Virus record (IMG/VR): IMGVR_UViG_2713896773_000008
Location: 1 to 4,338 of that record
DNA length: 4,338 nucleotides
From: a virus
Taxonomy: Duplodnaviria; Heunggongvirae; Uroviricota; Caudoviricetes
Direction: 5' to 3' (one strand)
Part shown: positions 1-4,338 of the stretch, piece after piece
How the letters are laid out: each line of letters begins with the position of its first letter
Position numbering within the stretch: position 1 is the stretch's first letter
The notes under the pieces: generated by a model
What the model was told of the DNA's origin: nothing
Database searches by the model: none
What the model saw: only the letters and a program-made list of their open reading frames with translations
Position numbers and translations under genes: made by a program

Positions 1-414
1 CTGCATCAGGCTGTTTTTTGTTTCTTCCGCCTCCCGGATCCGGAACAGTTTTTCTGCTTCCGTATCCTTCACCCAGGCTGTGCCGTTCCACTTCTGAAAC
101 TCCCCTTCCGGGGATAACCAGGTGATATTTTCCGGTAGAGGTCCGAGTTCAGAAATAAATAACGAGTCGCCGGAAGCCACGTCATAGACGTTTTTTCCCC
201 GATGATCTTCAACGAGATGCCACGATGCCTCATCACTGTTGAAAACAGCCACGAAGCCTGCCGGAATATCTGGCGGTGCAATATAGGTACTGTTTGCTGG
301 CAGACCTGTATGAGGCGGAATATATGCGTCACCTTCACCAATAAATTCATTAGTTCCGGCCAGCAGATTATAAATTTTTATGGTCCGTGGTTGTTCACTC
401 ATTCTGAATGCCAT
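1..414 (-). CDS. tfa: Tail fiber assembly protein (Tfa chaperone), first 138 codons; 3' end runs off the window start
   Basis: Hand translation of the minus strand from the ATG at 414..412 gives [138 protein letters not shown] with no stop before position 1. I recognise this as near-identical to lambda/E. coli prophage Tfa from memory. GAGG at 423..426 sits 8 nt upstream of the ATG, and the ATG overlaps the stf stop (TAATG, 412..416). It is absent from the ORF track only because its stop codon lies outside the window. Confidence 0.9.
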
Positions 415-3275
415 TATGCAAGCCTCACAATGTAGTTAAATGCGATGTTTTTGACGGTGTTTTCCGCGTTACCAGCAGCGTTAACGGTGATGGTGTGTCC
501 ATGTGAGCCAATCGCAACGGAGTGCGTATGAGCACCAATACCGACAGTATGTGCATGTGCGCCTGCGCTTGCAGCAGTGCCGGACAGCGAGTGGGTATGA
601 GCACCATCTGATGATGTCTTCCCTGCATTACGAGTCTGGCCACTACCGCTTGTTGTGCTCATAATCCCCGCGCTTAGATTTGAAATCGCGGTATAACCAT
701 TAGGGAAAATGCTCGTGTTCGTGCCACCAAATGCACCGGAACTCTTGTGTTGGTGCGCACCGGCACTATTTGCGGTCCCGCTAATACTATGGGTATGCGC
801 CCCGGTGTTATTCGTGGATTTGGTTCCGTAATCAAACGACGATGTGGTTTTCGTCCCCAAATCCGTACTGGATGCGCTGGCGCTGTGGGTGTGCGATTTA
901 ATGCCGTCCTGTTCCTGAGACAATACGGCCCGACCACTGGCAGGTTTGCCCTTAATCGTCCAGCCACGCATATCAGGGATCACGCCTGACGGATAAGCGG
1001 CTGCAAGTTTCGGGTAAGCAGATTTGTCAAAAGTCTGCCCCTGCATCAGGGCATAACCAGACGGAACGGTATCTGATGGCCACGGGATTGGTGCGCCGAC
1101 TGGGTAGCTTTCTGGTGGAAGATTTTTCGAGGTATAAACTTCTGCCCAGCCTTCCTCAAAACCATAACCGTCTCTTGAAGAACGGTAGAACAGACCACCA
1201 TTTCTGTAATGCGCCTTCATCTGCAGGGTCCGGCAACTTCCGACTCCGGTATAGAAGTTAACCAGAATATAGCTGTCGCCAGAGCGGGTGACATTGTAAG
1301 CGCCTGATTCGGCATTCCAGGGAACGCCACCATCCGCATCGGCATATGTATCCGTTGCCCTTCTGGCAAAAGCAGCCACATGCGCGGCGGTTAAAGTAAT
1401 ATCTTTGGAACCATCAAATGGAACACCGGATATTTTTCTTGCAGTCTGGAGTTTTGTAGCAGTTGCAGCATTACCAGTGGTGTTCTGATTACCCGTAGTG
1501 TTTACACCTGGAAGGTTAATATTTGCAGAACCGTCGAAAACAACTCCACCGATAGATCTTGCCGTCTGCAATTTCGTGGCTGTACTTGCATTACCATTCA
1601 ATGAACCAGTTAATCCACCTGTAACAGACAACGGACCTGAAACTGTTCCTCCGGTTGTTGGCAGTGCTCCAATATCTGATGGTGTAGGTTTCTGATGTGA
1701 GCTATACATCGTATAAACAACACCATAGGTAACGCTGGAAGGCTTACTCGCTGAATATGTTGGCGAGGTATAAACAGAAACTGACGCATTTGCAGTACAA
1801 TCCCAATGGATATTTACACTCGTCGCATAATTGCCAATCTCAACGTAAATATCATATGTATCGCCGGATGTGTTGATCCAGGCGAAATTCGTTAATCCGA
1901 CGGCTGTACGCTTCCACAAAGCCCCGGTAATTCCTTTGGGGTTTCCATTGCCTGCTCGTAGAACCAGTTCTGAAATGCCTGCCTGATGTGGGGAACCGAC
2001 GTTGTAACCAGCGCCACCAATCAATGCGATGTAAACGATGGAACTCGCTTGTGGCATGGTAACCGTAGCCAGTTTGAACCACCCAGCCCCGCCAGAGAAA
2101 GACATCGTTACTGAATTTAAAGTACCAATATCTTTCGGCGTTAATGTTATATCCGCAGTCAGTGCTTTTCCGTTAACTTTTCGGTTAGATGGCACCCTGC
2201 TATTCGCATTGTCATTGGCTGCTTTAACTGCTTTTGGCGTTGCGGCCAGCGATTCACTGGTGCTATCAACAGCACTGCTAAGTTTCACAACACCTTTAGT
2301 TGTAAGGCTTGCGTCTTCCATCGCAACTGCACCGGCAATCTCTTCAGCACGATCAGCAGCAGCTTCCGCACGGGTCGCAGCGGATTCAGCAGTAGTTTTG
2401 CTCTGAGATGCCGCCGTCGCACTGCCAGCTGCCTCTGTCGCCTTCGTGGATGCTGTCGTGGCGCTGCCTTTCGCTGCTGATGCCTGTCTGCTCGCCTCAT
2501 CTTTTGAAGCAGACGCAGATGATGCCGATGACGCCGCCGAACTGGCGGACGATGCAGCTGCCATTTTTGAGGATTCTGCACTGGTTTCCGGGGCTTTCGC
2601 GTTCGTTTCGGATGTCTTCGCTGCGGATGCAGACCTCGCTGCTGCGCTGGCCTGTTCAGCGGCTTCGCCAGCCTTCGTTGTGGCTGTTGAAGCAGACGAT
2701 GCGGCGCTTTCTGCCGATTTTCCGGCGGCGGTGGCACTGGCTGAGGCCTGCCCGGCACTTGTTGACGCGGCACTGGCAGACGACGCAGCCGCTGTTTTTG
2801 AGCCTGCCGCAGCCGAGGCGCTCTGTCCCGCTGCCGTTTCAGAAGACCTGGCGTTTGTCTCAGACGTCTTTGCCGCCTTCGCGGAATTGCCTGCCGCCGT
2901 TGCCGAGGAAGCGGCACTACTGGCGCTTGATGATGCGTTCGTTTCTGATGATTTCGCTGCCTCTTTTGAGGCCGCCGCATCCCGGGCTGAGGTGGCTGCT
3001 TCTGACGCCTTCGTGGTCGCGGCGGATGCAGAAGTGGCTGCTGATTGTTGTGACGCTGCCGCATTCGTTTCTGACGTTTTCGCCGCACCGGCACTGGTAG
3101 CTGCCGCGCTTTTTGAGGACTCTGCAGCAGCAGCACTTTTTGCTGCTTCACGGGCCTTTGTCGATGCCGTTCCTGCGCTGGAAGACGCTGACTGAGCCGA
3201 CGACGCGGCCTGTCCGGCTGACGTGCTGGCGGCACGTGCTGAGCCTGCAGCATCGGTTAGCCGTCCTGACGGTAC
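414..3275 (-). CDS. stf: Side tail fiber protein (Stf), N-terminally truncated: 953-codon open frame with no start codon; first in-frame ATG at 2564 gives the 716-aa track ORF
   Basis: The minus frame is open from 3275 to the TAA at 414..416. It encodes an Ala/Ser-rich shaft with KTSETNA-type repeats, an ATPKAVK motif, two TATKLQTAR tail-fibre repeats and a His-rich C-terminus ending [18 protein letters not shown], all lambda Stf-like from memory. An in-frame TGA lies at 3276..3278. Codon-by-codon reading found no ATG, GTG or TTG in frame between 3275 and 2564. The sequence upstream of the ATG at 2564 (gcagaatcctcaaaaATG) has no Shine-Dalgarno. Confidence 0.85.
432..900 (-). other. His-rich HxH tip (receptor-binding needle) domain of Stf
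   Basis: Translation contains SHTHS, GAHTHS, GAHQH, GAHTHS, GAHAH, GAHTHS and GSHGHTITV motifs. Comparable HxH motifs coordinate iron in the T4 gp37 fibre tip (established knowledge); I did not model structure here. Confidence 0.7.
1400..1600 (-). repeat. Tandem duplication (120-bp period) encoding two phage tail-fibre repeat units within stf
   Basis: Plus-strand 1441..1478 (gcagtctggagttttgtagcagttgcagcattacc) and 1561..1596 (gccgtctgcaatttcgtggctgtacttgcattacc) are clearly related. They encode [23 protein letters not shown] and [23 protein letters not shown], exactly 40 residues apart. Confidence 0.7.
2599..3083 (-). repeat. Degenerate in-frame repeats in the Ala/Ser-rich Stf shaft (23-bp motif, four copies)
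   Basis: The motif GCrTTyGTyTCnGAyGnyTTyGC occurs on the plus strand at 2599, 2851, 2935 and 3061, with offsets of 252, 84 and 126 bp (all multiples of 3). On the minus strand each encodes A-K-(T/S)-S-E-T-N-A. Confidence 0.6.
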
Positions 3276-3438
3276 TCATCCCCGCGCCAATCTGACGGGC
3301 AATGGTTTCAATTGATGGCCAGCACACACCTTCGTCATTACTGAAATCAGCCAGGCGGGCCATAATTGCCACGCTGGATAATTTCATGCCTGATGCAGCG
3401 CAACCATCCCATACATAGCCGGTTAATTTAGTGCTCAT
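3256..3438 (-). pseudogene. 5' fragment (about 58 codons) of a winged-helix HTH_36-like gene, probably a replication-initiator type, cut off at a deletion junction
   Basis: ATG at 3438..3436 with GAGG at 3445..3448 (6-nt spacer). Translation [60 protein letters not shown] has the typical HTH_36 pattern. From about 3256 the same frame degenerates ([11 protein letters not shown]...) because it is reading the stf shaft out of frame; the track ORF 3148..3438 is that read-through. Confidence 0.5.
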
Positions 3439-3607
3439 GACCGACCTCTATTTCCCTGAATTTACGACGAAACTGTTCGAGCGGACTGAAGCATTCATGC
3501 TCATAGCCTTCGCGGAGGTAGATAACCCGTTGTGTTTCCGGCTCCCAACGAATGACTCTGACGGGCACTCCGTAGTGATCTTTGAACCAGCGGTTAACTT
3601 GTCGCAA
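3428..3607 (-). CDS. Alternative-frame small ORF (59 codons from TTG) with a strong Shine-Dalgarno; either a real small gene or the true 3' half of the frameshifted gene above
   Basis: Minus frame with first base at 3607: TTG at 3607..3605, preceded by AAGGAG (3621..3616) with an 8-nt spacer. Translation [59 protein letters not shown] looks strongly protein-like. Stop TAA at 3430..3428, overlapping the HTH ORF start. The frame is closed upstream by TGA at 3637..3635. Confidence 0.25.
3445..3448 (-). promoter_or_regulatory. Shine-Dalgarno (GAGG) for the HTH-fragment ORF
   Basis: Minus-strand aaatagaggtcggtcATG: GAGG lies 6 nt upstream of the ATG at 3438. Confidence 0.4.
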
Positions 3608-3786
3608 AGGACTGTCTCCTTCTGCCGGTTGAAATCACCCACAGCCCACTCAGCAAAGCTGTGGGTTACAATTTCCCTGTCACCTGGTACATTAACTGCA
3701 TAGCAATACTCCACCTTCGCTTTTCCACCCGGTACAGGAAGCGCAATCAGTTGCGAGCGACGGTAGTGTGTTGTTAAACTATTCAT
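3448..3786 (-). CDS. Hypothetical early-region protein (112-aa ORF); possibly frameshifted, see alternative frame 3428..3607
   Basis: ATG at 3786..3784 overlaps the upstream stop (ATGA, 3783..3786), suggesting translational coupling. The N-terminal half ([57 protein letters not shown]) looks protein-like; the C-terminal half ([45 protein letters not shown]) is Ser-rich and less convincing. Confidence 0.45.
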
Positions 3787-4338
3787 GCGTTAGTTTCTCC
3801 ACAGTCACGACACGCCACGGCGCCCGGAGCTGCACACTCGCGGGCGTCATTACTTTCTGAAATGCAAAAAATTTTGTAGACCAGTGCTGCATGCTCCTGC
3901 AGCTTCGAAATTGAGAGGTACAGCTCGTCGTTAATTGCTGTCTTCTCATGCGGTTCCACTACACCGTCTTCAATTGCTGAACGAATCTGTTTTGAATAAC
4001 TGCCGATCTGTTCAATGACCTCCAGCAGGCGTTGGTTGATATCGGCGTTGTCCACATCCTCGACATCAGGAAGAGACACAAAGACGCCATTTGCAGACTG
4101 CGCCACAGCGTCAGCAATGAAGTGAGTTCCACCAGCACGTTGCAAAATCATTGCCCATCCCAGCGGGAAAATCTGATCGCCATCGGCACGAAGGCGGTTA
4201 AATAATGCGTTCTCTGTTACATCCAGCCAGTCAGCAGCTTCAGCGTAACCCCCCGGCAACGCTGCGATAGTTTTTCTGACAGCTTTCACGTACCACTCAG
4301 GCTGTTTTTCTACTTTCCAGTGATGCTTACCCACGGTT
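3783..4338 (-). CDS. Prophage early regulatory protein, CII-like (resembles phage 186 CII / CP76 family); 5' end at or just beyond the window end
   Basis: Open minus frame from the window end to TGA at 3785..3783, protein-like throughout. The segment [38 protein letters not shown] resembles, from memory, 186 CII QTLRNKLNPEQPHQFTPPELWLLTDLTEDSTLVDGFLAQ. The C-terminus carries C-x9-C-x7-C-x2-C. The family assignment is my inference, not a search result. Confidence 0.55.

Follow-up and report, generated by a model that had tools for sequence, protein, structure and literature searches.

The stretch of viral DNA analysed here (positions 1 to 4,338 of IMG/VR record IMGVR_UViG_2713896773_000008; 4,338 nucleotides, hereafter the window) carries a side tail fibre gene, stf, whose 5' end has been cut off at a deletion junction, followed by tfa, the gene for the tail fibre assembly chaperone. 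This segment is very probably a non-functional lambda-type stf-tfa remnant in a heavily deleted Escherichia coli lambdoid prophage, with a frame that is open because the deletion is recent. On the simplest reading, neutral decay of the stf remnant, an ordinary prophage pseudogene, has just begun. The remnant itself matters little, and the analysis of its junction could matter more: the stf sequence is joined to a nucleotide of a phage replication gene at which deletions in other prophages have also ended. The features that make up the stf-tfa segment are the following, with ORF standing for open reading frame and PGAP for the Prokaryotic Genome Annotation Pipeline.

1..414, minus strand: tfa, tail fibre assembly chaperone gene, 5' part (codons 1-138 of 194), which exits the window's left end
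414..3258, minus strand: side tail fibre gene lacking its 5' end ('stf), equivalent to residues ~147-1092 of intact 1092-amino-acid alleles, with the Ala/Ser-rich shaft, the collar domain and the C-terminal receptor-binding part
414..2564, minus strand: 716-amino-acid ORF from the first in-frame ATG, called by pipelines in identical loci; unlikely to mark the native start
2446..3195, plus strand: antisense ORF of 249 amino acids inside the Ala-rich stf shaft, from the ORF listing; WP_033801682.1, 'hypothetical protein', in the PGAP annotation of strain ML35

The minus-strand frame runs without a stop from 3275 to 414 (953 sense codons); a TGA at 3276-3278 precedes it and a TAA at 414-416 ends it. 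The remaining five frames hold 20-48 stops over the same stretch, and the open frame is therefore the remnant of a real gene and not a product of chance. Genuine stf sequence ends at 3258/3259, and positions 3260-3275 are chance read-through into another truncated gene. A lambda-type Stf has its own start codon with a ribosome-binding site, and the window offers neither: a scan of canonical and rare starts with anti-Shine-Dalgarno duplex energies returned no credible start in the first 237 codons of the frame, and the first in-frame ATG, GTG or TTG is the ATG at 2564, whose anti-Shine-Dalgarno pairing is just -1.6 kcal/mol, essentially none. An earlier note on this DNA had described a frame open for 953 codons without a credible start, and had named a proper start with a ribosome-binding site as the finding that would overturn this description; the scans of frames, starts and Shine-Dalgarno pairing bear it out. 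The suspicion that the 716-amino-acid ORF is an annotation artefact also holds, in that PGAP calls exactly this ORF, which has no Shine-Dalgarno sequence, in ML35 (WP_369810756.1, 'phage tail protein'); the protein is called in 137 blocks of a large sequence collection. The antisense ORF is most likely a by-product of GCN-rich codons. Further long stop-free ORFs lie in the Ala/Ser-rich shaft at 2408-3100 (plus strand) and 2285-3253 (minus strand), and such extra-frame and antisense ORFs are probably artefacts of codon composition. That pipelines annotate the internal-ATG ORF and the antisense ORF of a remnant as proteins is a warning for annotation. No promoter- or terminator-like signal in the window rose above shuffled controls.

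The remnant belongs with the lambda-type fibres. Its intact relatives in complete E. coli genomes are 1092-amino-acid 'prophage tail fiber N-terminal domain-containing proteins' with J and lom upstream and tfa downstream, and the nearest intact allele (PSS-10) is 99.3% identical to the remnant at the DNA level. The tail-attachment domain PF08400, found at residues 1-134 of an intact allele (L004, 7.6e-70), is absent from the 953-residue frame, with about 145 residues lost; residue 6 of the window frame aligns to lambda Stf residue 145, in agreement with the loss of about 140 N-terminal residues that the earlier note had estimated. Retained are the collar domain PF07484 (4.9e-12) and fibre repeats, with PF03335 present. 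The shaft is 76% identical to residues 145-352 of lambda orf-401 and the last 230 residues are 69% identical to lambda orf-314 (BLASTP 3e-108 and 1e-18/8e-23 for the two regions taken together), so that both the shaft and the C-terminal receptor-binding region are homologous to lambda Stf. Functional lambdoid phages (mEp332, ev099 and others) carry mosaic segments of stf-tfa that are 90-95% identical. As in lambda-type loci, stf is directly followed by a tfa of the Caudo_TAP family: the tfa coordinates were transferred from ML35 (L001, tfa 3830..4414, with window position 1 at L001 4001), and the full-length ML35 Tfa matches PF02413 (6.5e-44) and shares 95% of its residues with lambda Tfa orf-194. 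The stop of stf and the ATG of tfa (414-412) overlap in ATAATG (412-417), with a GAGG 8 nucleotides upstream of the ATG, an arrangement that supports the proposed translational coupling of tfa to the stf remnant. An intact C-terminal module and an intact tfa had been claimed as well; this stands for the collar, the C-terminal parts and tfa codons 1-138, and in near-identical loci tfa is intact over its full length. The position of the gene differs from that in a tail operon: intact loci run J-lom-stf, and the window stf abuts a truncated gene for an O-like replication initiator.

The earlier note had left open whether such a long frame reflects a recent deletion or maintenance of the module, and the comparison of copies favours the former. 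Eight truncated copies, the window included, differ over 3.26 kb at three variable nucleotide positions and one in-frame 3-bp indel, and truncated copies are about 99.8-100% identical. Of all single substitutions in the frame, just 3.6% produce a stop. With near-identical copies and few stop-creating substitutions in a sequence rich in Ala, Ser, Thr and Gly, far fewer than one disruption is expected per copy, and the open frame is thus explained by youth. One of the complete genomes listed with the truncated allele, RM10410, already carries the insertion sequence IS2 inside stf (at about window position 1820; L024 4604-6157), where the gene is annotated as two pseudogene pieces. The idea that openness reflects maintenance found no support, as the comparison of dN/dS among truncated copies has three variable sites to work with (at most three substitutions per 2.86 kb) and hence no power. 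Two points weigh against a purely neutral account. Near-zero divergence carries no signal either way, so purifying selection is compatible with it too; and tfa, with its own GAGG, could be translated if transcripts of the early operon read through into it. Two polymorphisms were seen among the copies: at window position 2591 the window has a private G (Pro) and every other copy, truncated or intact, has A (Ser), and truncated copies vary in whether they have a GCA codon at 3124-3126, in the Ala run.

The same data bear on the possibility that the truncated stf-tfa has been selected as a host-range cassette, either as a reservoir drawn on by lambdoid phages through homologous recombination or by hitch-hiking with cargo downstream of tfa. 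Such selection appears improbable. The same truncated allele is found in 17 complete genomes and in the 137 collection blocks, and functional phages share the mosaic segments described above; lambda recombines with the stf/tfa genes of the Rac and Qin prophages at about 2e-6 in experiments (PMC3945230), incomplete prophages are enriched in tail fibre genes (PMC7744054), and related loci have defence genes right after tfa (Avs2 in Ec-U11 and PT109, McrBC-like genes in those of the ML35 type). Near-zero divergence, however, gives no evidence of constraint, the RM10410 copy is already disrupted by IS2, and the role of donor would benefit phages and not obviously the host. A DNA donor needs no open reading frame, so openness would be left unexplained, and the cargo is seen in related loci, whereas the window itself ends inside tfa. 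By analogy with Rac and Qin, the remnant may passively donate receptor-binding sequence to lambdoid phages that infect the cell, as such DNA is known to be able to do, and it is a further example of decaying prophages that retain tail fibre and chaperone DNA. The position downstream of tfa varies by strain (L001, L002, L004, L006, L027), with a McrBC-like pair, Avs2, a GIY-YIG protein or DUF4236/DinI, and looks like a hot spot for defence genes and morons. In the neighbouring S3 remnant (L031), Dsr1 is on the side of the early region and does not adjoin a tfa.

It is very unlikely that a shorter protein, read from the 716-amino-acid ORF or a different internal start, is produced alongside Tfa and has been co-opted, for instance to bind receptors in free form or to act in exclusion. 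In favour of this, the ORF has no interruption and a PGAP annotation, an SD-like (Shine-Dalgarno-like) GAGG precedes tfa, and the early operon reads straight into 'stf with no strong predicted terminator between. Conversely, a Shine-Dalgarno sequence is absent at 2564 and elsewhere, promoter signal does not exceed chance, the early operon is normally repressed in lambdoid lysogens, the product would have no particle-attachment domain, and disruption by IS2 is tolerated in RM10410. Co-option, which the earlier note had also raised, is thus without support from starts, promoters or attachment domain. Finally, start-less C-terminal fibre cassettes with a chaperone gene are the typical content of invertible fibre segments (Mu G, P1 C, e14 P), and the early half of the window resembles e14, which in K-12 has such a segment. 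That the remnant is a silent Sv'-U' cassette of this kind, swapped by a Pin/Gin/Cin invertase, is nonetheless barely credible. The only match to a 26-bp hix/gix/pix-type site (AAACC-NN-GGTTT core) is one with two mismatches at 683-694, which is at chance level, and none lies near 3259; there is no inverted partner cassette in the window; identical remnants have McrBC-like genes and no invertase after tfa; the variable part would comprise 950 amino acids, almost the entire gene; and the boundary is accounted for as a deletion joint against intact stf. The invertible cassette was rejected for want of a crossover site, an inverted partner in the window and an invertase in identical loci.

The joint that created the remnant is resolved to the base. 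Three features meet there.

3250..3267, no strand: deletion junction, plus strand ...GCATCGGTT|AGCCGTCC..., with the joint at 3258/3259
3259..3438, minus strand: first 60 codons, with the winged helix-turn-helix (wHTH) part, of an O-like replication initiator gene of the HTH_36 family (PF13730, 1.4e-7); the intact protein has 313 amino acids
3148-3438, minus strand: chimeric ORF of 96 amino acids, in which the truncated helix-turn-helix gene (HTH') runs out of frame into stf

Aligned base by base, the intact stf (L004) reads ...GCATCGGTT|GCATG, the intact helix-turn-helix gene (L005) reads ...GTGCGAT|AGCCG, and the window reads ...GCATCGGTT|AGCCG, so that stf just past its N-terminal domain is joined to nucleotides (nt) 180/181 of the replication gene. 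On the coding strand the junction is CGGCT|AACCG, which matches the motif of the recurrent junctions described below at six of six positions; an assembly artefact is therefore unlikely. The O-like fragment is 99.4% identical to the intact gene (L005 5240..6181). Its ATG at 3438 opens a frame different from that of stf, which passes the junction and stops at 3148; as the two frames are out of register, no fusion protein with Stf sequence is made. The intact gene contains tandem CCGTCAAAATCTGAC-like iterons at gene nt ~300-440 (L005 5740-5880), which encode a repetitive 'DPSKSDASKSDPSKFDASKS' linker and are presumably the phage origin. With iterons inside the gene, the HTH_36 gene is taken as an O-like initiator with an internal putative origin, which has been deleted in the window.

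The most likely history of the window, as far as related loci allow it to be reconstructed, starts from a prophage that was already truncated. Window positions 1-3259 are 99.97% identical to the remnant in strain ML35, which has the order J'|'stf-tfa-McrBC-like and breaks stf at the same nucleotide as the window, with a J fragment as partner (window 3254-3259 against L001 7254-7259). Of 5,426 complete E. coli genomes, 17 have this ML35-type allele at the e14/icd site, and its older J'|'stf joint reads GTAAT|AACCG. The ML35 block ymfL-DUF4222-HTH is on that strand too, 8.4 kb upstream, and the window corresponds to L007 with positions 890-9305 removed. An ML35-like composite prophage at the e14/icd site would thus already have had J' joined to 'stf at this nucleotide, and a TA-to-TA deletion of about 8.4 kb would then have run from the nt-181 hot spot of the O-like gene to that joint. 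In the end product the first 180-181 nucleotides of the O-like gene are fused directly to stf after its N-terminal domain, with loss of the promoter-distal replication, lysis, head and tail genes and of the stf start, ribosome-binding site and PF08400 domain. The stf break point common to the window and the ML35 type may reflect descent or a preferred AACCG half-site; nearly all matches in a survey of the stf side with an intact-allele probe were intact genes. Two observations count against this history. The exact junction was absent, by whole-window and junction 28-mer searches, from the 5,426 complete E. coli genomes, GTDB representative genomes, metagenome contigs and viral contigs, and exact-protein look-ups of the 96-amino-acid chimeric ORF, the 716-amino-acid ORF and YmfL gave no match to it either; with the junction in no other searched genome the proposed ancestor is a reconstruction, and the window might, with less probability, stem from a single deletion in an intact phage or from a chimeric assembly. 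In addition, the ymfL part of the window is just 98.3% identical to ML35, so that ML35 itself is not the parent.

The break in the O-like gene is at a recurrent site. Two deletion ends are re-used with nucleotide precision just upstream of the iterons (L005 5947-6001), at nt 180/181 (after ...ACGGCTA) and nt 234/235 (after ...CAGGGTA), and their partners are dozens of different genes downstream. The first is joined to J in Survcare253, CM151387 and CM151382 and to a site upstream of rusA in TA249-type loci (81 blocks), and in isolate 2-101 (L033 4319-5188) it fuses a 60-residue wHTH fragment in frame to minor tail protein L. PGAP annotates this last fusion as an ordinary 'phage minor tail protein L'. 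The second is joined to the terminase large subunit in K-12 e14 (oweE'/'aaaE, ymfN), to baseplate gpV in ML35, to lom in Ec-U11, to DUF968 in S3, to tfa in ETEC4075 and to the terminase small subunit in two further loci (L039, L040); in K-12 CPS-53 (yfdO), where the joint is to the yfdP side, the gene is kept from nt 234 onward and the break is used from the other side. Two further breaks, at nt 210 (PT109) and nt ~243 (KFu022), have a single example each.

When the first 78 residues of the O-like protein served as query in a protein search, in a sample restricted to short products with breaks up to codon 130, the result was 120 short clusters, many of them singletons from read-set assemblies. 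In 54 of the 120 the match to the intact protein breaks off at residues 77-79, with about 50 different tails, and in a further 23 it does so at residues 59-61 with mostly unrelated tails, where a few of the residue-61 clusters are diverged homologues and not junctions; every other end position accounts for one to three clusters. Mapping of the tails onto intact references (L003-L034) gave 38 unique partner sites, five of which are common to both hot spots. T|A stands exactly at the joint in 34 of these 38 (background TA 4.9%; binomial p ~1e-40 by our own arithmetic), with G at -4 in 29 and C at +3 in 21. The resulting consensus is ~CGGNT|ANCCG, and among the 30 TA sites of the O-like gene the two best are nt 180 and nt 234, a ranking that is partly circular since the GG/CC part also resembles these two sites. 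Orientation could be assigned to 29 events, of which every one is a same-strand downstream deletion and none is an inversion, although selection for prophage-killing deletions could conceal inversions. No paper returned by literature searches treats this recurrent pattern in its title or abstract. To our knowledge, the O-like rearrangements of e14 and CPS-53 have been described only as isolated pseudogenes and not as instances of a recurrent site.

The window would accordingly be one instance of a recurrent, sequence-directed deletion in e14/CPS-53-type prophages. Whether an undescribed process of this kind, with breaks at T|A in CGGNT|ANCCG-like sites and same-strand joins, repeatedly dismantles such prophages is put forward tentatively, as a possibility that we hold to be somewhat doubtful. 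Several known agents were considered and rejected. Adjacent deletion mediated by an insertion sequence does not apply, as no such element was found at any examined junction, and the IS2 of RM10410 is an unrelated later insertion. By inspection, the integron-type G|TT crossover, RusA (which cuts 5' of CC) and RuvC (WTT|S) do not fit the mapped joints. The motif of quinolone-stabilised gyrase cleavage cuts before G and implies a GNNC 4-nucleotide overhang (PMC6379681), which does not match G-N-T|A-N-C. For a TA-core serine recombinase the products fit, but the 29 events include no inversion and the remnants have no recombinase gene in common. The candidates left are breakage or nicking near the origin followed by rejoining guided by TA, and slippage between short homologies at a structured site; an imperfect inverted repeat, GGTTAACGCG-TAAGG-CGCGT...TAACC, is bordered by nt 210 and nt 234. 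Models of prophage decay usually combine random deletion with selection. At least 38 independent partner sites on two fixed nucleotides, with a shared motif, suggest that E. coli prophages are in part inactivated by a directed mechanism that is open to experiment. If the process is real, whether it is due to a phage- or host-encoded enzyme or to an origin-linked break, it would amount to a specific way of 'grounding' prophages and would explain the ymfN fusion of K-12 e14 and yfdO of CPS-53.

The remainder of the window is the early region from which the replication gene fragment comes, and it contains three more genes.

3428..3607, minus strand: DUF4222 gene, 59 amino acids (PF13973, 8.6e-19), annotated in relatives
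3448..3786, minus strand: ymfM homologue, 112 amino acids, overlapping the DUF4222 ORF in another frame; 2 of 112 residues differ from the K-12 e14 ORF (counted by hand)
3783..4334, minus strand: ymfL, CII-like regulator of the Phage_CP76 family, 183 amino acids (PF06892, 1.5e-13); PGAP 'protein YmfL' in relatives

All genes of the window, the antisense ORFs apart, are on the minus strand. Positions 3258-4338 are 99.4% identical to the early region of lambdoid prophages with the 313-amino-acid HTH_36 gene and keep the e14/CPS-53-type order on one strand (cro-like, ymfL, ymfM/DUF4222, O-like HTH_36 initiator), with the initiator truncated after 60 codons. The exact YmfL protein is present in 16,145 blocks of the large sequence collection. 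Where the ymfM and DUF4222 ORFs overlap, current PGAP annotation retains DUF4222 alone. According to a preprint, ymfM is an SOS-inducible filamentation gene and division inhibitor (bioRxiv 10.1101/2020.11.19.390815).

Among known systems, the closest to the left part of the window is the stf-tfa operon of lambda (orf-401/orf-314 and orf-194 in lambda PaPa) with its relatives in E. coli K-12, StfR-TfaR of Rac and StfQ-TfaQ of Qin. The shaft, the C-terminus, Tfa and the stop/start overlap are shared, and lambda also has an antisense ORF, 'orf206b', of the same kind as that at 2446-3195 on the plus strand. Unlike lambda stf-tfa, the window has no PF08400, start codon or ribosome-binding site, and a truncated replication gene stands upstream in place of J-lom. 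The cryptic prophages of K-12, with their fibre pseudogenes stfE (e14) and yfdL/tfaS (CPS-53), and the ML35-type remnant are likewise decayed prophages that hold fibre and chaperone fragments; unlike the ML35-type remnant, the window has the O-like gene and not J as junction partner.

For the hot spots, a near parallel is illegitimate recombination anchored at the nick site of a replication origin, reportedly described for M13 and pC194 by Michel and Ehrlich in 1986. There too, one precise fixed end near the origin is joined to many variable, fixed-site-like partners, and only deletions arise. The present case differs in that the HTH_36 protein has no recognised nuclease domain in a Pfam search and no nicking initiator is known here, and in that there are at least three fixed sites and the partner sites also recombine among themselves. 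The cryptic prophages of K-12 are also close. The e14 block ymfL-ymfM-oweE' is homologous to the early-region half of the window, and in e14 (oweE'-'aaaE, ymfN) and CPS-53 (yfdO) the same O-like gene is broken at nt 234/235 from opposite sides. Their partners differ from that of the window, being the terminase large subunit in e14 and the yfdP side in CPS-53, and the window is broken at the neighbouring nt 180/181.

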